This document shows positions 1,315-45,335 of a stretch of 64,000 nucleotides of DNA, piece after piece. The stretch is from the NCBI GenBank assembly GCA_963666215.2, contig CAXWPL010000005.1:32001-96000 (forward strand). The letters run 5' to 3'. Each line of letters begins with the position of its first letter. The first letter of the stretch is position 1. Source of the stretch: Acidobacteriota bacterium. GTDB taxonomy: Bacteria; Acidobacteriota; UBA890; WLXD01. The position numbers were made by a program, and so were the translations under genes. The notes beneath the pieces were generated by a model, which had not been told where the DNA came from, searched no databases, and worked only from the letters and a program-made list of their open reading frames with translations.

Positions 1315-3573
1315 CTATGGATCCTGCTGCTCGCGCTGCAGTTGCACACGGTCTACTTGCGCCAAGCGGGCTCGCGCGCGCGGAGCCACCAGCGGACCGT
1401 CGTTGTGGAACAGAGTGGCGTGTGGGTTGGCCGCGGCACGCTGGAACGCGGACCGCGCCGCGTCCAGGTCGCCTCCCTCGGCGGCCAAGAGGGCCAACCC
1501 CAGCCAGTAATCAACCGCGGCATTCCCGAAGGGAGCATCCTGCGGCGCGTCGATGCTCTGCAAGACGCTCGCGGCCTCGCCCCACGACCCGGCGCGCATC
1601 AATACACCTGCCATCGTCATGCGCAGAATCCAGCGTGGAACGATACCGGCGTCGCGTTCGTCGGCCGTGCGCGCCGCCGCCCAGACCACCGCTTCTGCGC
1701 GGCTGCGATCGGTCAAGGGCGCAACCTGCGGGCCGCTACGCAGCGAAACGGTGAGGCTGCCGCGATCTTCGCCGCGGCGATACTCGAAGCGCAGCGCTGA
1801 AAACGCGTCGTGACCGTCGAGCGCGTCGAGCACGGCGGCGACGGTAGCTGTCCGAGCGCTGTCGACTGTCAGAATCTCGTCGCCCACCTCGAGGCCCGCT
1901 CTCTCTGCCGGCCCGTTGGGTGCAACGTCGACGACGATCGGACCAGCGCCCAACTCGCTATCGATCATTCGCGCTCCGAGCCAGATCAACGGGCCCGGCA
2001 GCGCTCGATCCAGATCGGCGACGAATGAGCGCAGCGCGTCGCGATCGTCGAACGGCAACACCTTTGCGCTCGGCGAGCCTACCGCGCCGCCGGCTGCCCA
2101 TGTCCAGAGCGTGTAGCTCGAGCTGGACCGCTCGTCCGAAAGCTCGGCGAACACCAGCAGGGCCGCTGAAACCTGCGCTTCGATGCGCTCTCGTGCCCCG
2201 CGCCACTGTCGCGTGTTGCCGCGTCGCACGCTGCCGAGCATATCGGCGTCGACTCCCACCTGCCGCAGCGCCCGGCCAGCGCTTCGATCGAGGAGGAACC
2301 ACTCCTCGCTGGCCGAAAGCCCTCGGGCAATCTCGCCGCGCACCGAGTCGCGGCCGATCTCGTCGCCGCCGACGACACCGATGAAGGCCAGTCCGGCGCG
2401 CAGATCGATATCGATCGTCAGCGTGTCGCCCTCGCCAATCGATACGTCGCGCTCGAACACATCGCTGTTGTGCGACACGACGATCTGATGATCACCAACC
2501 GAAAGGGTCACGCGCGGCGGTGTGCCGGCCGCTCCCTGCGGCTGCACCTGCTCGCCGTCGATCACCAGGCGTGCGCCCTCGGGTAGACCACGAAGCACCA
2601 CAAGCCCTTCCGACCGGGCCAGCGACACGACCCCCAAGCTGTAATCGGCCAGGTCGGGAAAATCGGCGCGCGAGCGGTATGTTCGATAGCCGTCGCGACG
2701 CAGCTCCACCTCGTGTGACCCGGGCAAAAGACCGTCGATGCGCAACGGCGCCGACGCCGCTCCCGCCGCGCTGTCGGCCGTGTCGACCAGCCGCCAATCG
2801 GGCGTCGCCGGTCGAGTCTCGCCGACCGGCTGGCCATCGATCAGCACCGTCACGCCGGCAGGAATGGTGGCAATCTGCACCGCCGTGCTGGAGCGCTCCA
2901 GAACAAGGCCGACTGCTTCCACGCGATTGGCCGTCACCTCGGCCTCGACGCGCAGGGAGGCATGGCCGGATCTTTCGGCGACAATCACGTGGTCGCCGGC
3001 GAGCACCGACAGAAGGTCGGGGATCGGCTCGAGCACGCGTCCGTCGATCTCGACCTCCGCGTCGGCCGGGAGAACCGAGATCCGCAGGAAGCCCACCTTG
3101 CGCTCGCGGCGCACCTCCATGCGGTCGGCGAGACGCGCCGGCGTGGTGTCGTTGTTGAACTCGAACGTCGGATCGAGATCGATGATGCGGTCGAGCTGCG
3201 CGTCGGTCTCACGGCTATCGCGCTCGCCGCTTTCCCAGCGCGCCACTGTTCGATAAACCAGGCTACGCCGTAGCAAGAGCTGCCCTTCGTCGTCGAGCGA
3301 AGACTCGCGCTCCAACGTTTCGACGATGCGATCGAAGAACTCGATCGAATCCTCCCGGCTCGACCGATACACCGTCTCGGCCCGCGCGAACAAAACCCGC
3401 AGGCTCTCCGAAACGAAGCGCTGGCCCGGCTCGGACGTCACCGCGGAGACTGTGGGCGCAAGAACCGGCGGCAGCGCGGCGATGCTAGCCAGCAGGGCCA
3501 CCATCGACCACCGCAAGACTGTCGATCGCCGGCCGCGGCTCGGGTTGGTTCCTGTCGGAATCATCGGGCTCAT
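1315..3573 (-). CDS. Exported PEGA-repeat and PDZ domain protein
   Basis: Signal peptide; PEGA-like repeats (ISVLPADAEVEIDG, IATIPAGVTVLIDG, LPEGARLVIDG); PDZ (VVDVAPNGPAERAGLEVGDEILTVD); helical/TPR-like C-terminus. Confidence 0.75.
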   Translation of the reverse strand: MSPMIPTGTNPSRGRRSTVLRWSMVALLASIAALPPVLAPTVSAVTSEPGQRFVSESLRVLFARAETVYRSSREDSIEFFDRIVETLERESSLDDEGQLLLRRSLVYRTVARWESGERDSRETDAQLDRIIDLDPTFEFNNDTTPARLADRMEVRRERKVGFLRISVLPADAEVEIDGRVLEPIPDLLSVLAGDHVIVAERSGHASLRVEAEVTANRVEAVGLVLERSSTAVQIATIPAGVTVLIDGQPVGETRPATPDWRLVDTADSAAGAASAPLRIDGLLPGSHEVELRRDGYRTYRSRADFPDLADYSLGVVSLARSEGLVVLRGLPEGARLVIDGEQVQPQGAAGTPPRVTLSVGDHQIVVSHNSDVFERDVSIGEGDTLTIDIDLRAGLAFIGVVGGDEIGRDSVRGEIARGLSASEEWFLLDRSAGRALRQVGVDADMLGSVRRGNTRQWRGARERIEAQVSAALLVFAELSDERSSSSYTLWTWAAGGAVGSPSAKVLPFDDRDALRSFVADLDRALPGPLIWLGARMIDSELGAGPIVVDVAPNGPAERAGLEVGDEILTVDSARTATVAAVLDALDGHDAFSALRFEYRRGEDRGSLTVSLRSGPQVAPLTDRSRAEAVVWAAARTADERDAGIVPRWILRMTMAGVLMRAGSWGEAASVLQSIDAPQDAPFGNAAVDYWLGLALLAAEGGDLDAARSAFQRAAANPHATLFHNDGPLVAPRARARLAQVDRVQLQREQQDP

Positions 3574-4916
3574 TCGATCACCACCACAGACGACGAAGAG
3601 CGGTCGACCACATACACCCGCCCACGCCCGTCAACGGCGACGTCACGCGGGCCACGGAGCTCGAGACCGCCCGGCAAGAACGGACCCAAGCGCGCCAGCG
3701 TCTGCCCGTCTGGACCCATCACTTCAATCGATCGGGTATCGCGGTCGAGCACGTACATATTGCCCAGACCATCAACATCGAGCGCCTCGGCGCGCCGCCA
3801 GGGACGCGTGGTCACGACAGCACGATCGCCGCCGCCCACTCCGAACCGGAGCACGGCATTGGCGCGGCGATCGAGCACGTAGAGTCGACTGGTGGCGTCG
3901 ACGGCGAGGTCGACGGGCTGACGGTCTCTGCCGCCGACGACAACGCCTTGGAAGCTGCCATCGGGGCCGAACCGCAAGACCCGCTCCGGATCGTTATCGA
4001 GCAGGTACCACAGGCCGCTGGCCTCGCGCGCGCCAGCCAGCAGAGCCTTCAAAGGCACTGCGCGGCCATTTTGGATTTGCAGGAAACCGACGCGCGGCCC
4101 CCCGAGGGCGATGACGCCAGCCTTCTGGGTCGGCAGGTAGGGCAGTCCATCGATACCCCACCAAGGTCGCCCGTGGTCGTCGTAGCGTAGCCGGCTCACC
4201 GCGTTCCGTTCGACATCGACCAAGGCGACGAACGGCACGCCCTCGTCGATAACCAACAGCTGGCCGTCGCCGCTGGCGGCAATATGCACCGGCTCCTCGA
4301 GATCGAGGCCCGATACCGCTAGCCGGCGCGACGAAGTCCACGGCGCCTCTGCGAGTCGCGGCCGCAGGCGAAAGCGGTGCAGCAGCGTGAGCAAACGCAG
4401 GGCGTCGGCGGCGATGTTGGGGTCCGACTCGGCCGTGTGCCGCGCCGCTGCTGTCACCACGCGCTGCAAGCTGTCGGCCGCGGCCTGCCAGTGCTCGTCG
4501 GCCAACAGCGCGCGCGCCAGCCCGAAGCGCGCGCGACTCGTCCAGGCCGACGGGGGCTCCTCCTCGATGACGACGACGTAGGCCACCACGGCAAGGCTGT
4601 GCTCAGCACTCCTCCAGTGCAGATCTCCGCGCCGCAGGCGCGCCGCCGCGCGCCACTCCAGATCGGGATAGGCGGTGGCCGGAAAGTCCGCGAGAATGCG
4701 ATCGAGGCGTTCCAGCGCCGCCGCCGCGTCGCCGGCGCGTAGCAGGTCCTCGGCTTCCACGAACAGAGCCTCGGCCTCGGCGCCATCGCGTTGACCCGAC
4801 TGGGGAGCCGGCGCCGGCCCGCGCAGAGCAAGGGGGCCCGGCGGCACCGGCTTCATGGCGGCAATCGACACCAGCGCCGCGCACAGGATCGCGCGGCGCC
4901 GCAGCCCTACTCTCAA
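3570..4916 (-). CDS. Exported TPR + NHL-repeat (beta-propeller) protein
   Basis: Likely TTG start overlapping the PP2C stop; signal-like N-terminus, BamD-like TPRs, NHL repeats (PVDLAVDATSRLYVLD, ALDVDGLGNMYVLD, PRDVAVDGRGRVYVVD). Confidence 0.75.
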   Translation of the reverse strand: MRVGLRRRAILCAALVSIAAMKPVPPGPLALRGPAPAPQSGQRDGAEAEALFVEAEDLLRAGDAAAALERLDRILADFPATAYPDLEWRAAARLRRGDLHWRSAEHSLAVVAYVVVIEEEPPSAWTSRARFGLARALLADEHWQAAADSLQRVVTAAARHTAESDPNIAADALRLLTLLHRFRLRPRLAEAPWTSSRRLAVSGLDLEEPVHIAASGDGQLLVIDEGVPFVALVDVERNAVSRLRYDDHGRPWWGIDGLPYLPTQKAGVIALGGPRVGFLQIQNGRAVPLKALLAGAREASGLWYLLDNDPERVLRFGPDGSFQGVVVGGRDRQPVDLAVDATSRLYVLDRRANAVLRFGVGGGDRAVVTTRPWRRAEALDVDGLGNMYVLDRDTRSIEVMGPDGQTLARLGPFLPGGLELRGPRDVAVDGRGRVYVVDRSSSSVVVIE

Positions 4917-5668
4917 ACGTCCTCGCACATTACAACCACTACGGTGATGTTGTCGTGACCGTCGCGGTCGCAGGCGCGGTCGACGAGCGTCCGGCACGCC
5001 GCCGCCGCGTCGGACGCTTCACCCACCACCTCGGCGATCTCGTCGGCGTCGACCGACGGTGACATGCCGTCTGAAGCCATCACGTACACATCACCGGCCG
5101 CCACGTCGCCGGTAAGCATATCGACCTCGAGCTCGTCGCTGACGCCCAAACAGCGACTCAGCAGGTTGCGCATGGGGTGTATCGCCGCGTCCTCCAAGGA
5201 CAGCACTCCGTCGCGAACCTGCGGGGCTACGACGGTGTGATCTTGGGTGAGCTGGTGAATCTCGCCGTCGCGAACCCGCCAGGCCCGGGTGTCGCCCACA
5301 TGTCCGATCAACAGGGCATGGGGTTCCAGAACGATCGCGGTGAGCGTGGTCCCCATCCCTTCCCGGTCAGGGTCTTCGGCCTCCTCGAGAATCTGCCGGT
5401 TCGCCTCGCCAAATGCGTCGAGCAGGACCTCGGAGTCGACCGCGCGGCCGCTGTTGAATGCATTACGTAGAGTCTCGTTGACAATGTCGATCGCCAACCC
5501 ACTCGCGACCTCCCCGGCGTTGTGTCCGCCTAGGCCATCAGCCACTGCGAACAGGCCCACGCGCAGGTCGATACGCGAATAGTCCTCGTTGTGCTCGCGA
5601 ACCTTGCCGACTGTGGAGTACGAGCCGGCATTGATTCGCCAAGGTAACGCCCAACCGTTTTCACGCAT
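4913..5668 (-). CDS. PP2C-family Ser/Thr protein phosphatase (Stp1/PrpC type)
   Basis: REHNED, VADGLGGH, GMGTT, HVGDTR, SDG, DGHDNIT motifs. Confidence 0.95.
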   Translation of the reverse strand: MRENGWALPWRINAGSYSTVGKVREHNEDYSRIDLRVGLFAVADGLGGHNAGEVASGLAIDIVNETLRNAFNSGRAVDSEVLLDAFGEANRQILEEAEDPDREGMGTTLTAIVLEPHALLIGHVGDTRAWRVRDGEIHQLTQDHTVVAPQVRDGVLSLEDAAIHPMRNLLSRCLGVSDELEVDMLTGDVAAGDVYVMASDGMSPSVDADEIAEVVGEASDAAAACRTLVDRACDRDGHDNITVVVVMCEDV

Positions 5669-5863
5669 ACTCGAGGTTTCGTGACACTTTCGGGCAAACT
5701 GGTTTGCGTACAGGAGGGCGATTCAAACGATCTTCTTGCGGCCTGCACCACCTGTCAATCACACACGATGGAAGCGACGGGCTGATATTCTGGCGCCTGC
5801 CAGATGCGAAGCTGACGACAGCGTGCAGGGTAGGATCCTAGCCTGCGCGGTAGGAGAGCACTC

Positions 5864-6277
5864 ATGCCCAGCGACGAAGCGCCTGTCGGCGCCGCCGCGG
5901 ATGCCGCGGCAAGCACCGGACCGCCCCCCGCCGATCCGGCGACGTGTAGGGCGATCGCCATCTCCCAGGAGGCGCTCGAGACGTCGGTTCTCGACGGCGA
6001 GTGGAAAGACACCGACTTCCTCTTCTACCTGGAGCCTGCCGGCGTTTTGAACGTGCGGCTCGTTTGCTCGCGCACGCCACGCGACGAAAAGCTCCCGGCC
6101 GGCATTCTCATGACCCGAGCTGGCCGTGAGGCAAGAACCGTCTTCTTCGATGACGGCGTCAACCCCGAGTCCTACGAGCTGAGCTTTCCCAAGGAATTCG
6201 GGTATGTGAAGTCGATTCAGCACTACGAGCCTGAGTCGCGCGAACACGCGAAATACCCCTGGGCCAAGAAGTACTGA
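5864..6277 (+). CDS. Hypothetical protein
   Basis: AGGAG RBS before ATG, host-like codon usage, no recognised motif. Confidence 0.6.
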   Translation: MPSDEAPVGAAADAAASTGPPPADPATCRAIAISQEALETSVLDGEWKDTDFLFYLEPAGVLNVRLVCSRTPRDEKLPAGILMTRAGREARTVFFDDGVNPESYELSFPKEFGYVKSIQHYEPESREHAKYPWAKKY

Positions 6278-35113: not shown

Positions 35114-36150
35114 GCGGGTACGCAGCGAACTCGTGCGCCCCGCGCCTCTCGGTCTGGCCGCCCAGGCCGCCGTTGGATCCGAGCTTCGTGAGCGATCTGC
35201 AACCTGCGCACGGCGTGCGCGCCCGGGTTGGCCGGGTCTTCCGGCAGCAGCTCTCGGCGAGTCTGGCCCGGCGGCTCGCACAACCTCTGCCGAGCGCAGT
35301 GCCCTCCGACCGCGAGCTGCTAGGCGCGGCGCTCGAGTTGCTGCCGGAAGATCGTGCGACGCGGGGCCACGTCATTGTCGCGGACGTGCACGATCCCGAA
35401 CGCCAGCGACTGCTCGCGTTTGCGCTCGACGACGATGGCAGGCCGCAAACGGTTCTGAAAGCGGCCGCCAGCGCGGCCGGTCGCGCCACGATTCGGGCTG
35501 AAGCCGAGGCTCTCCTACGGCTCGGCAGGAGTAGGCGTCTCCAGCGCAGCGCGCGCGCTCCGCGAGTCTTGGGGTTCACCGAAGGGGCCGACATGACAGC
35601 GCTCAGACTTTCGGGCCTGAACGGACCTTCCCAATACGCGCAACTGCATTCCGGGCTGTTCCCGGCAGGCAATATCGAGTCTCACTTACTGCAGGCCTGC
35701 CGCTGGTTGATCACGTTTCAGGACGCGACGATCTGTGATTCCCAGGACGGCGAACTGCCCGCCGCCGCGGCACACGGCGACTTCTGGCCAGGGAACGTCC
35801 TGGCGCTCCGCGATGGCGTGGGTGTGGTCGATTGGGAGAGATTCTGGCCCGCCGCGCCCGTGACGCAGGATCTCTTCCACTATCTGATCTCGTACGCCTT
35901 CGTCCTTCCAAGCCTCGCGTGTCGGCGTAGAGAGCCGGCCGCAGCTCTGCACGCCGCCTTTGTCGCAAACGGCCCGCTCGGGCGCGCCACGAGGCTGGCG
36001 GTCGACATGTTCGGCAGCGCGAGGGGAATCCCGAGGCGCCGAATTTGGCGAGCGCTCGCCGCTCAGCTCAGGTGCCCGTCCGCCGTCCCCGAGCTCCGAC
36101 TGCGGGACGCCGAGCTGCTCGCAAACGCGATCGTAGGAGGGCGAGCATGA
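35110..36150 (+). CDS. APH-like phosphotransferase
   Basis: VLKA, EAEAL, HGDFWPGNV, VVDWE, DLFHY. Confidence 0.75.
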   Translation: MSGYAANSCAPRLSVWPPRPPLDPSFVSDLQPAHGVRARVGRVFRQQLSASLARRLAQPLPSAVPSDRELLGAALELLPEDRATRGHVIVADVHDPERQRLLAFALDDDGRPQTVLKAAASAAGRATIRAEAEALLRLGRSRRLQRSARAPRVLGFTEGADMTALRLSGLNGPSQYAQLHSGLFPAGNIESHLLQACRWLITFQDATICDSQDGELPAAAAHGDFWPGNVLALRDGVGVVDWERFWPAAPVTQDLFHYLISYAFVLPSLACRRREPAAALHAAFVANGPLGRATRLAVDMFGSARGIPRRRIWRALAAQLRCPSAVPELRLRDAELLANAIVGGRA

Positions 36151-38564
36151 AGGTAGCTTGGGTGATTGACGCCCTCGGCAGGGGAGGTGCTGAGGCTCTC
36201 GTGGCCCAGTACGCCGAGGCCGCGCGCTTCACGGGTATCGAGCTGCACGTGTTTGCCCTTCGGGCGTCGGGTGGCTCGGCCAACGCCACGCTGCTGCGCG
36301 ACAACGGGATCCCCTTGACCTGGATCAACTCTCGCAACCTGCGAGATCTCCGCGCCTGGCGCCTGCTGGTCGCCGCGCTCGAGGCGGCTGAGGTCGAGTT
36401 CATCCACGCGCACCTGACCTACGCCACGATTTGGTCGGCCCTGGCATCCTGGAAACTGCGCGTGCCGATGACGGCTTCGCTTCACGTCATGCCTGGTGGA
36501 AAGGACTCGACATGGGCGGATCGCGCGAGAGAACGCCTGATGTGTGCTCTGCTGCGTGCACGGGCACAGAAGACGGTCGCCGTCTCAGAGGCGACCGCGC
36601 GGGCATATGTCGAGCGCGGACTTCTTCGCCGCGAGGGGCTCGAGGTGGTTCGGAACGGCGTGCAATTGCGCGCTCCGGCGACCGCCGCGCAGCGCGCCGA
36701 AGCTCGCGCACAGTTCGGGATTCCGGAAGGCGCCCGGGTTCTTGTGAGCGTCGCGCTACTTCGGGAGGCAAAGGGCATCGGCGATCTGCTCCAGGCGATG
36801 CCACGCGTGCTCCGTACCCATCCCCGGACCATCGCCCTCATCGCCGGCGACGGACCCGATCGGCAGCGCCTTGAGGCGATAGCAAACCAGTTGGGGCTGC
36901 GCGACTGCTGCCGGTTCGTCGGTTTTCTCGAAGACGTCAGCCCGGTCCTGAGGGCAGCGGATGCGTTCGTTCACCCGTCGCGCGAAGAGGCCATGCCGGG
37001 CGCTGTCCTGGAGGCGCTGGCGGCGGCCGTCCCCGTCGTTGCAACCGCGGTCGGTGGCACGCAAGAGATCCTGACAGATGGTTCCGGAACGCTCGTGCCG
37101 CCCCGCTCGCCAGCCGCACTGGGAGAGGCCATCGTCGCGGCGTTCGACGATCCGCAGGGCACGGCGACGACGGCTCAAGAGGGGAGAGCGCGTGTGGCTG
37201 CCCGCTTCTCCGTCGGCCAGTGGGCGAAAGACCTCGCGGATCTCTACGGCCGGCTGGCGTCGGGCTGCCGACCGGCACCCGAGCAAGCCGATCGAGGCAT
37301 CGCGGCGGGATTAAGGGTGGCGGTGGTCGAGCCGGTCGGTCGCGGAGGCCTGATTCAGTACGCGTTCCAGCTTTGTCGCGCGCTCGCCGAGCAGCGCCTA
37401 CAGGTGGAGCTCATTACGTGCCGCGACTGGGAGCTTGCCAATGTCCCCAGGACCTTCGAGGCCACGACCCTGTTCGGCGAATCCGACGTGAAGCGGCGCC
37501 CTGGGCAGACCGGTGTGCGGGTGCGGCCATTCCTCCGCCTGCGCAGAGCGTTCTCGCACTACGGAAGATGGCTGCGGCTGTTGGGCTACGTCGGTTTGCG
37601 CCGGCGATACGACGTCGTCCAGCTCGGCGACATCCGCTTTCCCTTCGATGTCGTCCCGATCGTCTGCCTTCGGCTGCTGGGAGTGCGGCTGACCGATATC
37701 TGTCACAACGTCGAGCCCTTCGCCGTTGGCGGCCCGCGAGGGGGATCCTTCGGATTTGGAAGCTGGAGCCAACCGCTGTTGCGCTTGGCGTACCGGCAGT
37801 TTTCAACCGTCTTCGTCCACTATGCGGTCAATCGAGATCGCTTCCTCGCCCGGTACGAGGTCGACCGGGATCGAGTCGTCGAGATACCGCACGGCAACGA
37901 AGCGATCCTTGAGGAGGTCGCCAGCGGAGAGGGTGCCGGCGCCCTGCGGGCGGATCTCGGGATTGGCGTCGGTGATCCGGTCGTGCTGCTTCCGGGGACG
38001 CTCTCGCGCTACAAGGGCGTCGATACGTTGATCGAAGCCCTGCCGTCCCTTCTGGACCGCTTTCCCGACGCCCGAGTCGTGATTGCCGGCCATCCGTTGC
38101 CCGACTTCGATTTGGCCCGTCATAAGAGCCTGGCAGCAGCTCTCGGCGTGCATGACAGCGTCTCCTGGAACACCCGCTACCTGGAGGCCCAGGAGATCGC
38201 CTCCTGGTTGCAGATGGCGCAGTTGGTCGCGCTGCCCTACAGGCAGGCCTACCAATCCGGTGTCGCTCACCTGGCGCAAACGTTCGGCGTTCCCGTCGTC
38301 GCCACGCGAACGGGCGCGTTCGCCCAGATCCTCGAGGACACCGGATCAGGCCTCTTGGTTCCGCCCGACGATCCGCCAGCGCTGGCCAAGGCTCTGAGCG
38401 GGCTGCTCGCGGACGACCAGCTGCGGCGCGAAAAGGCACGGAACGCGACGCGCGCGGCGCACGGCCCCTTCGCGTGGTCAGAGGTCGCCGGCATCGTTCG
38501 CCGCCGCTACGAGGAGCTGCTCGCGGACGCCATCCCCCCACTCACGCGGGAGGGTTCGTCGTGA
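36147..38564 (+). CDS. Tandem double GT4 glycosyltransferase
   Basis: Two GT-B units: RGGAE..EAMPGAVLEA and GGLIQY..YKGVD..QSGVAHLA. Confidence 0.9.
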   Translation: MKVAWVIDALGRGGAEALVAQYAEAARFTGIELHVFALRASGGSANATLLRDNGIPLTWINSRNLRDLRAWRLLVAALEAAEVEFIHAHLTYATIWSALASWKLRVPMTASLHVMPGGKDSTWADRARERLMCALLRARAQKTVAVSEATARAYVERGLLRREGLEVVRNGVQLRAPATAAQRAEARAQFGIPEGARVLVSVALLREAKGIGDLLQAMPRVLRTHPRTIALIAGDGPDRQRLEAIANQLGLRDCCRFVGFLEDVSPVLRAADAFVHPSREEAMPGAVLEALAAAVPVVATAVGGTQEILTDGSGTLVPPRSPAALGEAIVAAFDDPQGTATTAQEGRARVAARFSVGQWAKDLADLYGRLASGCRPAPEQADRGIAAGLRVAVVEPVGRGGLIQYAFQLCRALAEQRLQVELITCRDWELANVPRTFEATTLFGESDVKRRPGQTGVRVRPFLRLRRAFSHYGRWLRLLGYVGLRRRYDVVQLGDIRFPFDVVPIVCLRLLGVRLTDICHNVEPFAVGGPRGGSFGFGSWSQPLLRLAYRQFSTVFVHYAVNRDRFLARYEVDRDRVVEIPHGNEAILEEVASGEGAGALRADLGIGVGDPVVLLPGTLSRYKGVDTLIEALPSLLDRFPDARVVIAGHPLPDFDLARHKSLAAALGVHDSVSWNTRYLEAQEIASWLQMAQLVALPYRQAYQSGVAHLAQTFGVPVVATRTGAFAQILEDTGSGLLVPPDDPPALAKALSGLLADDQLRREKARNATRAAHGPFAWSEVAGIVRRRYEELLADAIPPLTREGSS

Positions 38565-39727
38565 CGAGCTCGCAAGCGCTTATGTGGGCCGGCCTGATCC
38601 TGACGGCTTACCTGTACGTCGGGTATCCATTGATACTTGCGCTCCTCGCGTGGCTTCGTCCTCGACCCGTGCGACGGGCTGACGCCCGCCCACGGATGAC
38701 GGTGATCATCGCCGCCCATAACGAGGAGCGGTGGATCGGTCAAAAGGTCACCAACACGCTTTCGCTCGATTACCCTCCTGAGCGCCTCGAGGTCGTGGTC
38801 GCGTCGGATGGCTCGACCGATCGCACGGAGTCGATCGTCGCCTCCTGCCGTTCTCCACGTGTACGGCTTCTTCGTCTCGCCCGGCTTGGCAAGGCGAACG
38901 CGCTCAACGAGGCCGTCGCAGCGGCCGAAGGCGACGTCGTGGTGTTCACCGATGCCAACTCCAGAGTGCGCCCGGACGCCCTGCGCAACATCGCCAGGAA
39001 CTTCGCCGACCCGGATGTGGGCGGAGTGTGCGGGGCGAAAGTGACCTTGGCCACCGACGGTGATAGCACGCAGGTCGGGGAAGGTCTGTACTGGAGATAC
39101 GACCAGTGGCAGAAATCTCTCGAGACCCGCGTCGGCAGTGTCTTCGCTGCAGACGGGACTCTCTACGCTGTCCGTCGGTCACTCTACGTGCCGCTCGTGG
39201 AGCTGGCGCAGGCAGACGACATCGCTATCTCCGCTCGGGTTGTTTTACAAGGCCGACGACTGGTCTTCGAGCCTGAAGCGATTGCCGAGGAACCGGCCCC
39301 CGGGCATGGCGTCTCGGAGCTCAGGCGCAAGATCCGCGTAACCAATCACAGTCTCCGAGCGCTGCTCGGCCTCGGAGCTCCGCTTTGGACTCGAGGCCTC
39401 TATTCGTTCGAGGTCATCTCGCACAAGCTGCTGCGCCATCTGTCGCCGTTCTTTCTTCTGGCCGTTCTGCTCGGTGCCGGCGGCGCGGCCATAAGCGACG
39501 GCTTCGCGCGGCTCGTGCTCGTCGCTGCCGCGGGCTTCGCGGCGCTGGCTCTCTTCGGTGCGGCAGTCAGGGAGCGGAGCTGGGGGAGCGCGCAGCTCCT
39601 GTCGTTTCCGTACTACTTCGCGCTGGTGAATCTGGCCGCCTTTCTGGGAACGATCAGTGTTGCTCGAGGGGTTCGAGTGGCGAGCTGGTCGCCCCGCGGT
39701 GGTCTCGAAAGGGGAGGATGCACATGA
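38561..39727 (+). CDS. GT2 glycosyltransferase (CESA-like)
   Basis: IIAAHNEE, SDGSTD, FTDAN, ADD; terminal TM segments. Confidence 0.9.
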   Translation: MTSSQALMWAGLILTAYLYVGYPLILALLAWLRPRPVRRADARPRMTVIIAAHNEERWIGQKVTNTLSLDYPPERLEVVVASDGSTDRTESIVASCRSPRVRLLRLARLGKANALNEAVAAAEGDVVVFTDANSRVRPDALRNIARNFADPDVGGVCGAKVTLATDGDSTQVGEGLYWRYDQWQKSLETRVGSVFAADGTLYAVRRSLYVPLVELAQADDIAISARVVLQGRRLVFEPEAIAEEPAPGHGVSELRRKIRVTNHSLRALLGLGAPLWTRGLYSFEVISHKLLRHLSPFFLLAVLLGAGGAAISDGFARLVLVAAAGFAALALFGAAVRERSWGSAQLLSFPYYFALVNLAAFLGTISVARGVRVASWSPRGGLERGGCT

Positions 39728-40641
39728 TGGCAAGAAGCCTGGCTCGCTGGACCGTGTGGGCGACCGCAGTCACCATGGTCGGGGCGCTCTGCAGCCCCGA
39801 GACAGCAATGGCGCAGCAACAGTCCGTCGGGGTCGAAGTGAAGGTCCAAGGCAGCATCAACGACAACTTCTTCCAATCGCCCGACGACGACGCGCCGACC
39901 GAGGTACGCGCTCTCCGTGTCGAAGCGCGTGCCTTGTTCAAGCCCGTCGCCAGGGGAGCGGTGACCTTCGTGCTCGGCGGTGGTGGTACGGGATACGAGG
40001 GAGATACTCTCACTGCGACTTCGATCTTCGGCAGTTTCGTAGTCAATAGTCGCGCGCATGATCTCACGGCGACGGTAGGGCGCGAACAAGATCGGTTGAT
40101 CTTCGATGTCGGCGATGGCGTCGGCACTGCCGACATCTTGTTCGTGGTTGCAGACTACGGCGTACGTGTTCCGGGTGGCTTCGAGCTCAAGGCCCGGCTC
40201 ACGCTGCAGTCTCAAAGCTTCGAAACACCCGAGCACGACAACACGCTGATCGGCGTCGGGTCCGCGCTTCGCTTTCATGGGTTCGGCAGATCCTTTTCGC
40301 CTGAAATCGGCGTGTTGTTCGGAGGACGCTCGGCCACCGATCGCGGGGACGATCACGATCAGACCGATTACTACGTCAAGGTGCGTTCGGCTCCGACCGC
40401 CGGCATCTACATGAGCTTCCGCTACCGACACCGTTTGAGGGAGTACTCGATCACGGACTCGCTGGATCGGAACTTCGGCCGCGAGGACTCGCGCGATCAG
40501 TTCACCGCTCTCGCGGTGTTCCCGGCCAACAAACCACTCGCTGCGACGGCCTACTTCGCGCGACAGGACGCGACGTCCACTCTCCCGACTCGGACGTTCG
40601 AGACCACCGTGCTCACCCTGGGGCTCCGCGTGCGGTTCTGA
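39724..40641 (+). CDS. Putative outer-membrane beta-barrel protein (EPS export-associated)
   Basis: Signal peptide (AMA-Q), alternating beta-strand pattern, C-terminal LGLRVRF. Confidence 0.65.
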   Translation: MMARSLARWTVWATAVTMVGALCSPETAMAQQQSVGVEVKVQGSINDNFFQSPDDDAPTEVRALRVEARALFKPVARGAVTFVLGGGGTGYEGDTLTATSIFGSFVVNSRAHDLTATVGREQDRLIFDVGDGVGTADILFVVADYGVRVPGGFELKARLTLQSQSFETPEHDNTLIGVGSALRFHGFGRSFSPEIGVLFGGRSATDRGDDHDQTDYYVKVRSAPTAGIYMSFRYRHRLREYSITDSLDRNFGREDSRDQFTALAVFPANKPLAATAYFARQDATSTLPTRTFETTVLTLGLRVRF

Positions 40642-40670
40642 AGGAAACCGTAGAACGGGCACTGAAGCTC

Positions 40671-41759
40671 CTATAGATCGCAAGCGGGGGAGAGAGATTC
40701 TTCCGTGTCGCGTGGTGGTGGGAGGAGGTTGTAGACCTCGCGGGCAACGTAGCGCTTGAGGCAGCGGATGATTTCCTTCTTGGAGAGGCCTTCGGTGGTG
40801 CGGCGCTCCACGTAAGCGATGGTTGGCACGTGCCATCGCATCCGGACGATCACAGCGCGGTAGAGGGCGGTATTGGCCTGCCGGTTTCCCCCTCGGTTGA
40901 GCCGATGGCGGCCGCCGGTCTTGCCGGATCCGGCCGGTATTGGGCAGACGCCACAGAGCTTGGCGAAGGCCGCTTCGGAGCGGATCCGGTCGGTGTTGTC
41001 GCCGGCAGTCACGAGGAGCTCGCCGGCGATATCGGGCCCGATCCCGAACGCGTCGAGCAGGCGGGGTGCAGTCGCGGTAGTGAGTTTCTCCAGGCGTTTG
41101 GTGTGGGTCTTGATCTCCTCGTGCAGATCAAGCCACCGTCGGGCGAGCGAGCAGAGCACGTGACGCATCGTCACGTTGGGATCAGCCGGGTCCCCGTCGC
41201 CGTCGAGCCCGACACAGGTCGTCATCAGCTTATGGTCGCTGAGCGGTTCCAGCTTCGCTCGCAACTCATCGGAGGCCGTCACCAACGTCGCCTTGAGCGT
41301 CACGATCGCCTGGGTATGGGCTTTCACGGCAGTGTTGCGGGCGATCCGGGTGAGGCGGATCGCCTCAACGGCACCGTCGGAGACCTTGGGAGTTGCCGTG
41401 GCCTGCCCGGCCAGGACCTGACGGGCTGCATGTTCGGCGTCGATCGGATCGCTCTTACCGGCGAGGCGGCGTTGCCCTGCTCGAGGTGGCCGACTGACCT
41501 CGATCACTGTCTGTGCGTGGCGCCGCAAGAACCTGGCAAGGCCCATTCCGTAGCTGCCGGTCCCCTCCACCCCGAAGACGTGGACACGACCCAAGGTCTT
41601 GGCCCACGCCAACAGCCCCGCGTAGCCGCTGTTTGTGACCGAGAGGTAGTACTCGCCGAGACGGCCACCAAGGCCGTCAATCACGACGGCGACGTGTTCG
41701 TCCTTGTGAGTGTCGACACCGACGATGACATCGGTGCGCTCGAGTGCGATGCTGGACAT
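40671..41759 (-). CDS. IS110-family DEDD recombinase/transposase, intact
   Basis: GVDTHK, GVEGTG, KSDPIDA (DEDD), PAGSGK serine, RLNRGGNRQAN; AGGAGG RBS. Confidence 0.95.
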   Translation of the reverse strand: MSSIALERTDVIVGVDTHKDEHVAVVIDGLGGRLGEYYLSVTNSGYAGLLAWAKTLGRVHVFGVEGTGSYGMGLARFLRRHAQTVIEVSRPPRAGQRRLAGKSDPIDAEHAARQVLAGQATATPKVSDGAVEAIRLTRIARNTAVKAHTQAIVTLKATLVTASDELRAKLEPLSDHKLMTTCVGLDGDGDPADPNVTMRHVLCSLARRWLDLHEEIKTHTKRLEKLTTATAPRLLDAFGIGPDIAGELLVTAGDNTDRIRSEAAFAKLCGVCPIPAGSGKTGGRHRLNRGGNRQANTALYRAVIVRMRWHVPTIAYVERRTTEGLSKKEIIRCLKRYVAREVYNLLPPPRDTEESLSPACDL

Positions 41760-41935
41760 GGCTGTTGGCCTCCTTCACGGGTCAATGGTCCAGCTCGTCG
41801 GTCGGGCGGCCAGGACAAGACTGTGATGGGACCTGTTCAGATCAGGCTCCTATGAGGTCACTGCCCGTCCGGCTGGCGAGCAGCCTGATCGGTGCGCCAC
41901 CCCAGCCGACCGACAGGTCAGTGCAAGGACACCAC

Positions 41936-43344
41936 GGGGATGTCCCACCGTCCGTTGAACTAAGGCGACGGTGAAGTGGTTGGGGATTGTTACGCAGTAC
42001 GGCGCTCCTGCTCAAGGTGAGCGTCGACGGCGGCGTTCAGTGCGGCATCGAGCTTGGCGATGTCGCGGTAGCCACGGACCCTCCGGAAGTGGCTCTCGGC
42101 CTCGATGAGCGCGGTAACCGCCCATCGAACGATCATGCTCCCGGAGCGCCATCTCTTTACGTTGCGGCTGACGTGTTTGATCGTGCCGTTGAGATTCTCG
42201 ATCGTGTTCGTTGAACGCAACGTTCGAAGCAGCGGCCCCTGCACTCCGAGCCGGGTGACGGTGAGCGTCTCTTGCATTCCTTCTCTGAGCGAGGCCGCGG
42301 CACCCGGGTGATCCGTCTCCAGCTCTTTGGCCACGGCGTCGAGCTGCTTGGTCGCTGCCGCTGCCGTCTCCGCCTTCCAGGCCTTGCGGATCTTCGCCGC
42401 GAACCAGGGCCGGATATGCCCTGGCAGATGTTCCAAGACGTTCTTGATCTTGTGGACACGGCAGCGCTGGATCAGGGCCCACTCGCCGAACGTGTCGCGC
42501 ACTGCTTTACGGAGGCCCTTGGAGCCATCGATTACCACCAACCGCGCCCGTTCGACGGGCATGCCGCGTTCAATCAACTGCCGCAGCAGCGATCGGCACA
42601 CACGTGAACTCTCGGTGGTGCCTTCTACGACGCCCAGAACATGCTTGACGCCGTCCGTATCGATGCCCATGGCGATCACCAACAGGTGCTTGCCCATGTG
42701 CGTACCGTCGATCACCAGCACCGGCAAGTCCACCTCGTTGAGTGGTTGGGCCAGGTACTGCTGCACCTGCCGGGCGGTACGCGCTACGAACCGCCGCGAC
42801 ACACTCGAGCGACTCGTCCCGGATGAAGTTCGGCCTTCGGGCAGCTGCTCCAACGAGCGCTCATACTTGCGCGTCGTGACGCCGCACAGGATCTGCTCCA
42901 CGGCGCGCTCTTCGAGCGGGTCGGTGGCCTTGAACCTCTCCCAGTGCGGCAGCGGCAGCTCTTGGCCATCGACGCTCCGAGCCCGCGGCTTGCGTACCTT
43001 GACCCGCCGGCCGCCCATCACCAGCGAGCCCTCGTCGTAGCCGTGTCGGTACGCCCGCCGCTGCTGTGACCGTGCGTGGCGTTCTCCGCATAGCTCAGCT
43101 CTGTCTTCTTCCAGCAGCGAACCCAACACCCCGAAGCCCGCGTCCATGACCAGCGCTCGTAGATCCGATCGCGCCGCTACCACTGCCTCCAGGAGCGGGT
43201 TCTCTTGGCGCTCCGCTTTCCTACTTGTCTCTGTTCTGCGACTCTTGCTCATGACGGTGATCCTCCATGCCAGTGGATTGACCCCGACACACTATCGAGG
43301 TCGGATCACCGTCACCCTTTTTCAACGGAGCCTGTGACATCCCC
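41936..43344 (-). mobile_element. IS256-family element, copy B, intact
   Basis: Same IRs as copy A; 8-bp TSD GACACCAC (41928-41935, 43345-43352). Confidence 0.95.
41990..43252 (-). CDS. IS256-family transposase
   Basis: LVIDG, VIDGSKGL, QRCRVHK, STNTIENLN. Confidence 0.93.
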   Translation of the reverse strand: MSKSRRTETSRKAERQENPLLEAVVAARSDLRALVMDAGFGVLGSLLEEDRAELCGERHARSQQRRAYRHGYDEGSLVMGGRRVKVRKPRARSVDGQELPLPHWERFKATDPLEERAVEQILCGVTTRKYERSLEQLPEGRTSSGTSRSSVSRRFVARTARQVQQYLAQPLNEVDLPVLVIDGTHMGKHLLVIAMGIDTDGVKHVLGVVEGTTESSRVCRSLLRQLIERGMPVERARLVVIDGSKGLRKAVRDTFGEWALIQRCRVHKIKNVLEHLPGHIRPWFAAKIRKAWKAETAAAATKQLDAVAKELETDHPGAAASLREGMQETLTVTRLGVQGPLLRTLRSTNTIENLNGTIKHVSRNVKRWRSGSMIVRWAVTALIEAESHFRRVRGYRDIAKLDAALNAAVDAHLEQERRTA

Positions 43345-43465
43345 GACACCACGGTCGGTCAACTTATCGGTCAGGCCGACCGGAGCAGCGCCCCAGCATC
43401 ATCACAGTCAACTTAACTTTCCGAACCTTGTCCCCGGGCAATCTTGCTTCGAGGCAGACCGCTCT

Positions 43466-44164
43466 TCAAGGGGTGGTGGCCACCTGCCAATCCATCAACG
43501 ATCGGGTACGCAGCAGTCGGTAGTGTGCTGCTCGCAAGCGGTGTCGTCCGAGTCGGAAGAGGTTGAGGATGACACCTTGCACAGCCAAAAACTGTTGAGC
43601 TTGCGACGCTGACTTGAATCTCCGCATCTGGCGTTCTCGTTGTCGAGTGGGCTGGTGCGAGGCCTCGCATCGGTTGTTCGCGTAGCGCGCAGTGACATGC
43701 TCGACCGAAGGCATCACGACATGGTGCGCGGCCCCATAACTTCTGAGCTTGTCGGTAATCAACCATCGGGGTGCACTCCCCTGCCCTTTCAGCAACTTGC
43801 GGAAGAAGCGCTTGGCCGCGCGAGCGCTACGTCGCCGCTGGACCAAGATATCGATCACATCTCCGTCCTGGTCGACCGCTCGCCACAGGTAGTGGCGCCG
43901 GCCGCGGATCCTCACGAAGACCTCGTCCAGGAACCAAGTGTCACCCAGACGACCTTGCCGCCGCCGTAGCTTGCGAGCGTAGTCAGGGCCGAACTTCGCA
44001 CACCACCGTCGAATCGTCTCGTAGGTGACCTCGACTCCGCGCTCGGCTAGGAGATCTTCCACGTCTCGGAAGCTCAGGCAGAACCGGTGGTAGAGCCAGA
44101 CGGAGTGGCTGATGATCTCGATCGGGAAACGGTGTCTGCGATATCGGCTGACGGCGTTGCTCAT
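43466..44164 (-). CDS. IS6-family transposase
   Basis: YRRHRFP, WFLDE, YLWRAVDQDG, ITDKLRSY, NNRCEASHQP. Confidence 0.95.
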   Translation of the reverse strand: MSNAVSRYRRHRFPIEIISHSVWLYHRFCLSFRDVEDLLAERGVEVTYETIRRWCAKFGPDYARKLRRRQGRLGDTWFLDEVFVRIRGRRHYLWRAVDQDGDVIDILVQRRRSARAAKRFFRKLLKGQGSAPRWLITDKLRSYGAAHHVVMPSVEHVTARYANNRCEASHQPTRQRERQMRRFKSASQAQQFLAVQGVILNLFRLGRHRLRAAHYRLLRTRSLMDWQVATTP

Positions 44165-44204
44165 GGCCGTACTCTGTCAGCAGCGCCTTTAAGTTGACAG
44201 TGCC

Positions 44205-44413
44205 CCTCGAACGGCCCCCGTCGGCAGCTTCCCATCCCCGCTCGATGTCGGCGACGATCGCTCCAGGGCAGCGGGATCCATGGGCGCCGCGGACGACGCT
44301 TCCTCGTCAGGGATAGGTACCGCCTGACACGCCGCCGCTGCGATCATCGCCAACCCGAGCAACGATCCAGCGAGGTCTCTTGGCTTCACGCTCATTCCCA
44401 CCATCTCCTTCAT
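44205..44413 (-). pseudogene. 5' remnant of a lipoprotein gene truncated at the IS6 end
   Basis: Lipobox-like LAMIAAAAC; an adjacent frame reads IVADIERGWEAADG (NTF2-like by my reading) and stops at the IS6 IR. Confidence 0.4.
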
Positions 44414-44603
44414 GGTCCCCGGGTTGTCCAGAGCAGGCGGCCCATTCGACGGGCAAGTTCGCGCCTCACCCAAGCTATCAGAGCCGTGCGACGTCGCCCA
44501 CGGAGCGGCACACGGCGTGCGTACCTTGAAAGAGGACGTCGCCGGAGCTGGTGCTTTCGAGACAAACGCATCGACGATCGCACACCCGGTCGGTGACCCA
44601 CGG

Positions 44604-44798
44604 CTACCCGAAATGGCCCACGAGACGAGGACCCCGTGCCGTGGCCACCCGCAGGGGCAGCTTGCGCCACAGTCCGATCGCAAGCCGGTAGCGCGAATTG
44701 TCTGGAGAGATTCGAGGCAGCTCGGATCCCTTGGCCACGCGGTAGCGGTAGCGTGCCGGTTCGGGGTCGAAGCCGAAGCGACGTTTGAAGTGGTAGGC
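44604..44798 (-). pseudogene. 3' remnant of a FemAB-related (PEP-CTERM/EPS-associated) gene
   Basis: AYHFKRRFGFDPEP..ISPDNSRYRLAIGLWRKLPLRVATARGPRLVGHFG*; begins exactly at an IS256 end. Confidence 0.7.
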
Positions 44799-44819
44799 GG
44801 GGATGTCACACCGTCCGTT
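44799..44819. mobile_element. Isolated IS256 terminal IR remnant
   Basis: GGGGATGTCACACCGTCCGTT matches the copy B end at 41936 (GGGGATGTCCCACCGTCCGTT) at 20/21. Confidence 0.8.
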
Positions 44820-45335
44820 CTTGGCCTCGGAAGTCTTGGCGGGGTCGTCGCCGAGCGGCTCAGCGCCCTCGGCGTGAACGTGCTCGGCCTGTGCCGCAGC
44901 GGTAAGCCGCGCCCGCACGTTTCGCGCGTTTTTTCGCCGGACAACTGGCGCAGCATGCTTCCCTTGTGCGACGCACTGGTGCTCACCACGCCGCTGACAC
45001 CCCAGACCCACGGCATGCTCGACGCCGCGGCGCTCGCCGCACTCCCAGCGGGAGCGGTGTTGGTGAACGTCGCTCGCGGCGAGTTGGTTGACGAGCGTGC
45101 TCTGCTCGAGAGTGTTCGCCAGGGGCGCCTGCGCGCCGCCGTACTCGACGTCTTCGACCGCGAGCCCCTACCAGCAGACAGCCCGCTTTGGACCGAACCG
45201 CGGATCTGGGTGACGCCTCACGTGGCCGCCCCGAGCGAGGTCGATCTAGTGGCCGACGAGTTCGCCATCAACTACAGCCGGTTCATCGATGGCGCGCCGC
45301 TCGTAAATCTCGTCGACAGAGAGCGCGGCTACTAG
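44817..45335 (+). pseudogene. 5'-truncated D-2-hydroxyacid dehydrogenase (NAD-binding part)
   Basis: VLGLGSLG, PLTPQT, LVNVARG, LDVF, TPHVA; N-terminal domain missing. Confidence 0.8.

Follow-up and report, generated by a model that had tools for sequence, protein, structure and literature searches.

How did an IS110-group element come to lie inside the terminal repeat of another insertion sequence (IS), and did an RNA of its own lead it there? The question is raised by a stretch of 64,000 nucleotides from an Acidobacteriota bacterium (assembly GCA_963666215.2, contig CAXWPL010000005.1, positions 32,001 to 96,000 of the forward strand; hereafter the window, numbered from its first letter), in which three elements are nested on the minus strand: an IS256 in an IS110, and this IS110 in an IS6. 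We propose, with a probability of roughly 0.85, that the middle one is an ISEc21-type IS110-group element guided by a bridge RNA (seekRNA) whose target loop is programmed for the IS6 terminal repeat, a mechanism inferred from its relatives. A first-pass annotation had described an IS110 inside an IS6 repeat and, inside the IS110, an IS256 with its duplication; reading 40000-45000 and slicing out the junctions, we found all of these parts where it had placed them. The start that it gave, 40658, is the first base of the IS6 repeat, and the IS110 itself begins at 40665 (plus strand). The features have the following window coordinates:

40658-40664, minus: outer 7 bp of the split IS6 terminal repeat, GGCACTG, which on the minus strand reads C-AGTGCC, the right half of the IS110 target
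40665-43407, minus: whole IS110 element, from the Pfam and NCBIfam recombinase matches and the junctions
40665-41936, minus: IS110 part right of IS256, with the right end ...ATAGGAGC-TT, the recombinase gene, the donor loop and the right target guide
40671-41759, minus: open reading frame (ORF) of the IS110-family recombinase, 362 aa, open (PF01548 and PF02371; NF033542)
41821-41853, minus: donor-binding loop
41828-41821, minus: right donor guide CAUCACAG (DNA CATCACAG), complement of the left end CTGTGATG
41853-41845, minus: left donor guide AUAGGAGCC (DNA ATAGGAGCC), equal to the IS110 right end ATAGGAGC
41924-41919, minus: right target guide GCACUG (DNA GCACTG), reverse complement of CAGTGC
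41928-41936 and 43345-43353: 9-bp duplication GACACCACG, flanking IS256
41937-43344, minus: IS256 element (PF00872, NF033543), in the inner hairpin of the target loop
41990-43252, minus: IS256 transposase
43354-43407, minus: IS110 left end (CTGTGATG...) and 5' piece of the putative bridge RNA, with the 5' strand of the outer stem, the UGACC motif and the left target guide
43366-43358, minus: left target guide UAAGUUGAC (DNA TAAGTTGAC), in the same sense as the target
43408-44204, minus: IS6 remainder, comprising the inner part of the split repeat, the transposase and the intact repeat
43408 onward (repeat portion 43408-43416): inner part of the split IS6 repeat, TCAACTTAA...
43466-44164, minus: IS6 transposase (PF13610 and NF033587)
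44189-44204: intact IS6 terminal repeat, with TAAGTTGACAGTGCC at 44190-44204 (plus)
44190-44203, plus: unoccupied, intact 14-nt target TAAGTTGACAGTGC in the other IS6 repeat, one of four exact copies in the genome

Guides and targets in the window

The candidate RNA was rebuilt by a script that omitted IS256 and one copy of its duplication, and the resulting left non-coding end reads exactly as the first-pass annotation had written it. On the minus strand the insertion target is TAAGTTGAC/AGTGCC. The left target guide agrees with the 9 bases left of the insertion at 9/9 positions, and the right target guide is complementary to the 6 bases on the right at 6/6 (CAGTGC, present at the right junction and in the intact IS6 repeat) and in the alignment shares its columns with the relatives' right guides. 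For TAAGTTGAC the 64-kb window has three occurrences where 0.06 would be expected, a count reached by 0 of 100 shuffles: one is the guide itself (43358-43366, minus), one stands at the left junction (43407-43415, minus) and one lies in the intact repeat (44190-44198, plus). In the donor loop, the left donor guide matches the element's right end at 8/9 positions with a 2-nt offset; for the right donor guide and the left end the agreement is 8/8.

Against NF033542 ('IS110 family RNA-guided transposase') the recombinase scored 170 bits (cut-off 140). It also matched the IS621 structure 8wt6 distantly (E = 5.5e-6), in an alignment that spans the GxDT.K, EgTGsY, K.D..DA and SG stretches with the D/E/D/D and Ser motifs. 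By analogy to IS621, we take these DEDD and Ser residues to be catalytic. The element shows the marks of the IS110 group: a recombinase with a DEDD RuvC-like domain at its N-terminus and a Tnp domain with the catalytic Ser at its C-terminus (the motif stretches align), a structured upstream non-coding RNA with two internal loops, target guides that fit both flanks and donor guides that fit its own ends. A 39-nt stretch in the 3' part of the recombinase gene (40733-40771, the ...LKRYVAREVY motif) had high depth in contigs of the DNA and RNA sequencing runs; its copies there are bordered by unlike sequence on both sides, and the stretch is conserved among many IS110 relatives in those samples.

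The nest itself can be taken apart cleanly. Joining GGCACTG to 43408-43416 restores a 16-bp perfect repeat, GGCACTGTCAACTTAA, equal to the intact end, so that the repeat was split 7 bp from its tip in an IS6 of 804 bp (length without the insert). This element has the DDE transposase of its family (PF13610, NF033587), a size of about 0.8 kb and terminal repeats beginning with GG. An 8-bp target duplication was not found in its flanks, GTAGAACG (40650-40664 side) and CCTCGAAC (44198-44215 side), which are unlike. Such duplications are commonly removed by cointegrate resolution, and their loss is therefore no argument against membership. Without IS256 the IS110 measures 1326 bp; no IS6 sequence is duplicated at its junctions, which have one base in common (C, minus strand) and leave the boundary ambiguous by 1 nt. 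The IS256, of 1408 bp, has a Mutator-type transposase and imperfect terminal repeats that read GGG(G)ATGTC... at either end; its duplication of 9 bp falls within the 8-9 bp usual for the family. Pfam and NCBIfam agree on all three transposase families.

RNA structure and guide programmes among relatives

Protein-guided scans yielded 159 loci of relatives, 79 from genomes and 80 from metagenomes, with recombinases 56-78% identical to that of the window and one cut copy (L023) at 92%. Their 83 distinct non-coding ends were extracted and aligned. RNAalifold placed a long outer stem around the target loop, closed by invariant GAC/GUC pairs, together with a small inner hairpin, and found the same closing pairs and hairpin in the donor loop. 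Counted over 27 fixed pairs, a set that omits the donor-loop outer stem and the linker hairpin, 94.3% of the cells were paired, compared with 81.4% after shuffling (0 of 500 shuffles as high) and 29-45% when partners were slid; cells changed on both sides numbered 268, against 92 shuffled and 61-83 slid. The rebuilt window RNA forms 27 of these 27 covariation-supported pairs, which bears out the stem-closed loop that the first-pass annotation had read there, with its 9-nt copy of the left target and the reverse complement of CAGTGC.

A profile built from the 83 relatives matched the window in two pieces: model positions 1-63 correspond to 43407-43345 (E = 7e-7) and positions 57-178 to 41934-41811 (E = 1.2e-29), and the overlap at positions 57-63 is the duplicated 9-bp stretch. 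The two pieces flank IS256, which therefore lies in the inner hairpin and separates the two target guides. A Rfam scan of 40000-45000 (E up to 1) returned two chance-level matches and no bridge-RNA family. Contigs of the RNA run X15 held five short pieces, mostly IS256 and the conserved parts of relatives, and gave no evidence of expression. One RNA-run contig covers the loop region 41840-41880; because it has three differences and then runs on unlike, we assign it to a relative.

Both loops were found in 131 of the 159 loci and both flanks in 94, giving 87 distinct sites. Covariation of guide and target, whose absence among homologs had been named beforehand as a possible refutation, is present across these sites. 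Guides matched their own flanks at a mean of 12.0 of 15 positions, and the flanks of loci with other guides at 9.1 of 15 (7014 pairings); for IS6-type guides the means were 12.2/15 against IS6-type flanks and 6.4/15 against IS3-type flanks. At least six guide programmes exist among the relatives, each with its own flank, and across programmes the GAC before the crossover and the A after it are near-constant.

Most loci follow the IS3 programme (57 sites), which pairs the guides TG(C/T)TA(T/C)GAC and GCGTTG with the site ...TACGAC/AACGC. This site is the end of the rve domain of an IS3-type transposase (PF00665 in 6/6 flanks tested, HTH_21 in 5/6) and presumably corresponds to the Y-D-N-A codons just before the catalytic E of the IS3 motif. 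The IS6 programme (25 sites) has the guides (T/C)AAC(T/C)TGAC and CTACTG, CTATTG or GTACTG, and flanks reading ...AAC(T/C)TGAC/CAGTGCC or variants of it. Left guide and target covary here even at single bases: at position 4 both have G in the window (TAAGTTGAC) and C in L060 (TAACTTGAC), and at position 5 both have C in L068 (CAACCTGAC) and in L144.

The IS3-class relatives, which are the majority, fall within the ranges L003-L031 and L082-L160 (e.g. L011:466-1269 and L005:462-1277), with the site ...TA(C/T)GAC/AA(C/T)GC; it is unlike the published ISEc21 site, though in the same gene family. A further programme, in L032-L047, L051 and L054, has the left flank ...TTGCCACCGCAGAC and many copies in two Vicinamibacterales genomes. 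Other programmes are those of L048 and L053, of L055 and L139, of L012 and L013, of L091 and of L117. The matching left flanks of all these further programmes read GCCGCAGAC, GCCTTGGAC, TCCGACGAC, TAATATGAC, CGAAGTGAC and TTTTGTGAC.

An IS6 transposase in the flank (tblastn with the window's IS6 as query) accompanied 14 of 26 IS6-class loci, 0 of 67 IS3-class loci and 0 of 24 others. One Vicinamibacterales chromosome carries 14 copies of an IS6-programme relative, inserted in both repeats of its IS6 elements: the neighbouring ORF with PF13610 has the same strand in L060 and the opposite one in L061, and both repeats have therefore been used. The left end of the relatives' IS110 always points toward the IS6 interior. 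One of the 14 copies, L067:1150-1260, adjoins an ORF with an rve_3 domain and is 5'-truncated, since its left end and first stem are gone.

In a quick IQ-TREE tree of 94 recombinases (LG+G4, SH-aLRT support only; the row L024 is a mis-called ORF with an end branch of 10), no fewer than three changes are needed to explain the IS6 programme, three of them forced by well-supported branches, compared with a mean of 12.4 for shuffled labels (0 of 500 as low). Its three lineages, namely that of the window, L107-L109 and a nine-row clade, are all nested among IS3-targeting rows. IS3 and IS6 targets have TGAC/A around the crossover in common, which may ease a switch from the IS3 to the IS6 programme. 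By these comparisons the IS6 terminal repeat is a recurrent landing pad for RNA-guided IS110 elements in this clade.

On the donor side, the left donor guide reproduces the right end over its first 8 bases in 93 of 94 loci, with A and G versions switching together; covariation also links the right donor guide to the left end (UA in 51, CG in 29 and UG in 3 of 83). A two-base spacer separates the matched right end from the common C. It reads AT in 40 loci, GT in 33, TT in 19 and CT in 2, the window having TT. Around the common C the target reads A-C-A and the donor T-C-T, and the CT core dinucleotide of IS621 is therefore inapplicable here; the ISEc21 copy has a one-base core pattern at its right junction, too. 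An invariant UC follows the right donor guide and is complementary to the constant GA that precedes the C in all targets; the A following the right target guide is likewise complementary to the donor's constant T. This resembles the handshake guides of IS621 (PMC11208158). The second base after the right target guide did not covary with the variable donor base, agreement being confined to invariant positions. Because there is no variation at those positions, we call the handshake pairing a possible one.

ISEc21, IS621 and the proposed course of insertion

The closest experimental reference is ISEc21, the only member of this RNA family with bench work. In an annotated copy on an E. coli plasmid, its recombinase is 43% identical to the window's over 338 residues and its non-coding end matches the profile of the 83 relatives (E = 3e-12). 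Both loops of both elements follow the order UGACC, left guide, hairpin, right guide, CUGUC, and their right ends are alike, with an 8-nt match, 2 nt and the common C. The RNA of ISEc21 is bound, is required (in cis or in trans) and was reprogrammed at the bench (Siddiquee 2024, PMC11187229), and the same paper reports natural redirection in ISMch6. Sharing this RNA family, the window element thus belongs to a bench-tested family with a known mechanism. Like the window element, ISEc21 targets another insertion sequence, at codons around the second D of IS3-family transposases (PMC11187229). The guides of the ISEc21 copy L161 spell H-S-D/Q-G codons, which fits this published target, whereas the window element aims at the non-coding terminal repeat of IS6.

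IS621 uses a two-loop RNA from its left end, with a 9-nt left guide pairing with the bottom strand, a shorter right guide pairing with the top strand and a donor loop (PMC11208160; PMC11208158). The window element has the same arrangement: a left-end two-loop RNA, a 9-nt sense left guide, a shorter antisense right guide, a donor loop against both ends, a recombinase with DEDD and Ser motifs and no target duplication. It differs in a protein that is only distantly related (E = 5.5e-6), in one C in place of the CT core dinucleotide and in the 2-nt offset of the left donor match; the natural targets of IS621 are REP sequences, and that of the window element is an IS6 repeat.

A terminal repeat as landing site has a counterpart. 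In 2003, Partridge and Hall reportedly described IS4321 and IS5075, of the IS1111 group, as inserting in the 38-bp terminal repeats of Tn21-family transposons. These elements resemble ours in using the terminal inverted repeat of another transposon, in one orientation; they differ in their group, in having subterminal inverted repeats, in an RNA downstream of the gene and in a target that is Tn3/Tn21, not IS6. The first-pass annotation knew of no described guide against IS6. We found no statement of IS110 targeting IS6 repeats in the literature, that is, in the available excerpts of PMC11208160, PMC11187229, 10.64898/2026.08.14.744561, 10.1101/2024.06.21.599552 and 10.64898/2026.10.21.760802 among others; the supplementary target tables of Durrant 2024 and Siddiquee 2024 may list such targets.

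From these comparisons the insertion can be pictured as follows. The 5' non-coding end of the IS110 would encode a two-loop RNA, in which the left guide UAAGUUGAC (9 nt, sense) and the right guide GCACUG (6 nt, antisense) would specify the 14 bases TAAGTTGAC/AGTGC, and the guides of the donor loop would address the element's own two ends. Acting together, the recombinase, with its DEDD and Ser motifs, and the RNA would have integrated the circular element 7 bp from the tip of the IS6 repeat, in one orientation, without duplication and with the crossover at the single C common to donor and target; we infer the order of strand exchange. An IS256 landing later in the small hairpin between the target guides would have cut the RNA in two.

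The reading as a bridge RNA with a fully readable 14-nt target, advanced by the first-pass annotation, finds its support in four kinds of evidence: covariation within the RNA family, covariation of guides with flanks, the IS6 elements at relatives' sites and the kinship with ISEc21. The structure is established by covariation, guides covary with flanks and with the element's ends, and the RNA is a member of the ISEc21 family. Calling the element an RNA-guided parasite of IS6 ends holds as far as targeting goes; this copy, though, is probably dead, it is not singular in its clade, and the mechanism is published.

Alternatives, the fate of this copy and the wider clade

A number of observations weigh against RNA-guided targeting of IS6. 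The left guide agrees with its flank at 9/9 positions in just 22 of the 87 sites and at 6 or fewer in 36, and the right guide at 6/6 in 40 of 87, being imperfect elsewhere. IS6-class loci without an IS6 transposase in the flank number 12 of 26; some of these flanks are shorter than 100 bp, but seven loci have 1.2 kb of left flank, and such loci may be solo repeats or chance sites. No close copy with a left end was found, the nearest, L023, being cut at a contig end. The 2-nt offset between the left-donor-guide match and the common C departs from the IS621 rule, and an identical core dinucleotide at both junctions was not found in the window or in any of the 94 relatives with a right end, all of which have a single C. 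The first-pass annotation had looked to a fold and to a model of homologs. Folded as a single sequence, the rebuilt RNA is unremarkable (z = -1.6 to -1.7 over 200 dinucleotide shuffles), its opposite strand folds about equally well, and the guides are paired with other parts of the RNA; we discarded this fold as evidence. Support for the structure thus comes from the covariation and profile of the relatives, not from the fold energy of the window RNA. Finally, that the window RNA was transcribed and was required for recombination would follow by analogy from ISEc21 and IS621, whose RNAs are transcribed, bound by the recombinase and required (PMC11187229; PMC11208160).

Might the recombinase alone recognize the IS6 repeat, as in classical site-specific recombination, the RNA-like structure serving otherwise (in translation control or as a promoter) and the guide matches being incidental? 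The imperfect fit of many relatives' guides to their flanks is compatible with this, the near-constant GAC before and A after the crossover could reflect protein contacts, and the window element is known from sequence alone. It is hard to reconcile, however, with at least six flank motifs, each of which comes with a fitting loop sequence in the same columns among proteins that remain 56-76% identical, or with the single-base covariation of guide and flank inside the IS6 class; and in ISEc21, of the same RNA family, the RNA is needed and reprogramming goes through it (PMC11187229). We therefore regard recognition by the protein alone as very unlikely. Still less credible is an origin of the guides as captured target DNA, in which imprecise excision or recombination with an IS6 end would have left copies of the repeat in the IS110 and their position would be a remnant of joint transfer. 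It is true that the RNA's 9-mer copies the flank exactly, but the right guide is reverse-complemented at a distance of 16 nt from its left counterpart, an arrangement that suits pairing with the opposite strand; DNA captured from a target would not come apart and be inverted like this. Moreover, both guides occupy unpaired loop columns of a covarying structure in which relatives hold other sequences, and no contiguous IS6-derived sequence beyond the two guides was seen inside the IS110.

The remaining alternative accepts RNA-guided targeting and concerns the fate of the copy: the element could still be mobile through two RNA pieces, an RNA supplied in trans or loss of IS256, its single copy marking a recent arrival. 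Its recombinase ORF is open, with motif stretches that align to IS621, and the RNA of ISEc21 acts in trans and suffices in a 58-nt form (PMC11187229). Against continued mobility, IS256 puts 1.4 kb between the two target guides of a single loop, the genome has no second copy or other source of the window RNA, and four exact and seven one-mismatch targets lie unused. In addition, the junctions are identical in contigs from three studies, none of which joins across IS256, although contigs can hide rare variants. We consider this alternative improbable. The window's IS110 is probably immobile, and the IS256 insertion is probably what stopped its spread, the split RNA being the simplest reason.

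The search for further copies was made at several levels. In the genome the IS110 is single, and a copy with the same guides was found neither in the genome contigs nor in the metagenome contigs (best metagenome match 78%). Megablast of the IS110 against plasmids gave only 55-65-nt matches to the conserved donor-loop region of relatives, and blastn ('distant') against E. coli genomes gave no match. The copy L023, with its 92% identical protein, is cut at a contig end and has the right junction only, ATAGGAGC-AT-CAATGCC followed by non-IS DNA; this may fit a variant of an IS6-like repeat. The 14-nt target occurs in the genome in 4 exact, 7 one-mismatch and 34 two-mismatch-or-better matches, against 6 for the reversed control, and the genome holds 19 IS6-like stretches that are 71-88% identical to the window's IS6 (e.g. 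C4:599783-600579, C2:760221-760914 and C5:1335048-1373619). A target-rich genome with many unoccupied near-matches thus contains a single, broken IS110 of this type.

The sequencing runs contain 40-58% of the words of 41700-43500. Contigs of the runs X1, X2 and X6, from three studies, cover 40500-41963 and 43317 onward with 0 differences and carry the flank-IS110-IS256 and IS256-IS110-IS6 junctions, with their break inside IS256. Because the junctions are identical in the three runs and no run contig joins across IS256, the copy is fixed as far as contigs, which can hide rare variants, show. Summed contig depth in the three runs was about 100-800 for IS256 (41937-43344) and 3200-6000 for the 5' part of IS6 (44037-44167), against 5-18 for the unique flanks; this excess is not a copy number and indicates that relatives of IS256 and IS6 are abundant in those samples. 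Next to the nest, a 418-aa ORF (39385-40641, plus) ends with ...GLRVRF just before IS6. It has no Pfam or NCBIfam match and lies downstream of glycosyltransferase genes (36045-39727); it may encode an outer-membrane protein of a polysaccharide cluster.

Taken as a single locus, the window offers a clean natural case of the bridge RNA (seekRNA) mechanism, with both target guides readable and the landing site known. It is a clear but inactive example of a known mechanism, since a third element, IS256, split the guide RNA: a fossil without exploitable activity that records three successive insertions. The IS6 family into which it landed includes IS26-type elements, which are prominent in plasmid evolution. 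The mechanism is already published, and so is the habit of landing in other mobile elements; the part worth following is the picture at the level of the clade, which occurs in Actinomycetota, Acidobacteriota and others. The chances seem to us about even that it is a widespread, ISEc21-like IS110 clade parasitic on other insertion sequences, whose target loop has been rewritten repeatedly (at least three switches to the IS6 repeat from a background of IS3 Y-D-N-A codons, with TGAC/A in common), which uses a single-base core and in which a 'handshake' rule possibly limits the sites. The relatives hint that the rule of an identical CT core, known from IS621, is not general. They also form a ready comparison set for specificity, with one scaffold, guides that differ at single positions and matching targets. 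If the clade-level reading is true, they would constitute a natural series of reprogrammed guides and provide a different core rule for engineering.

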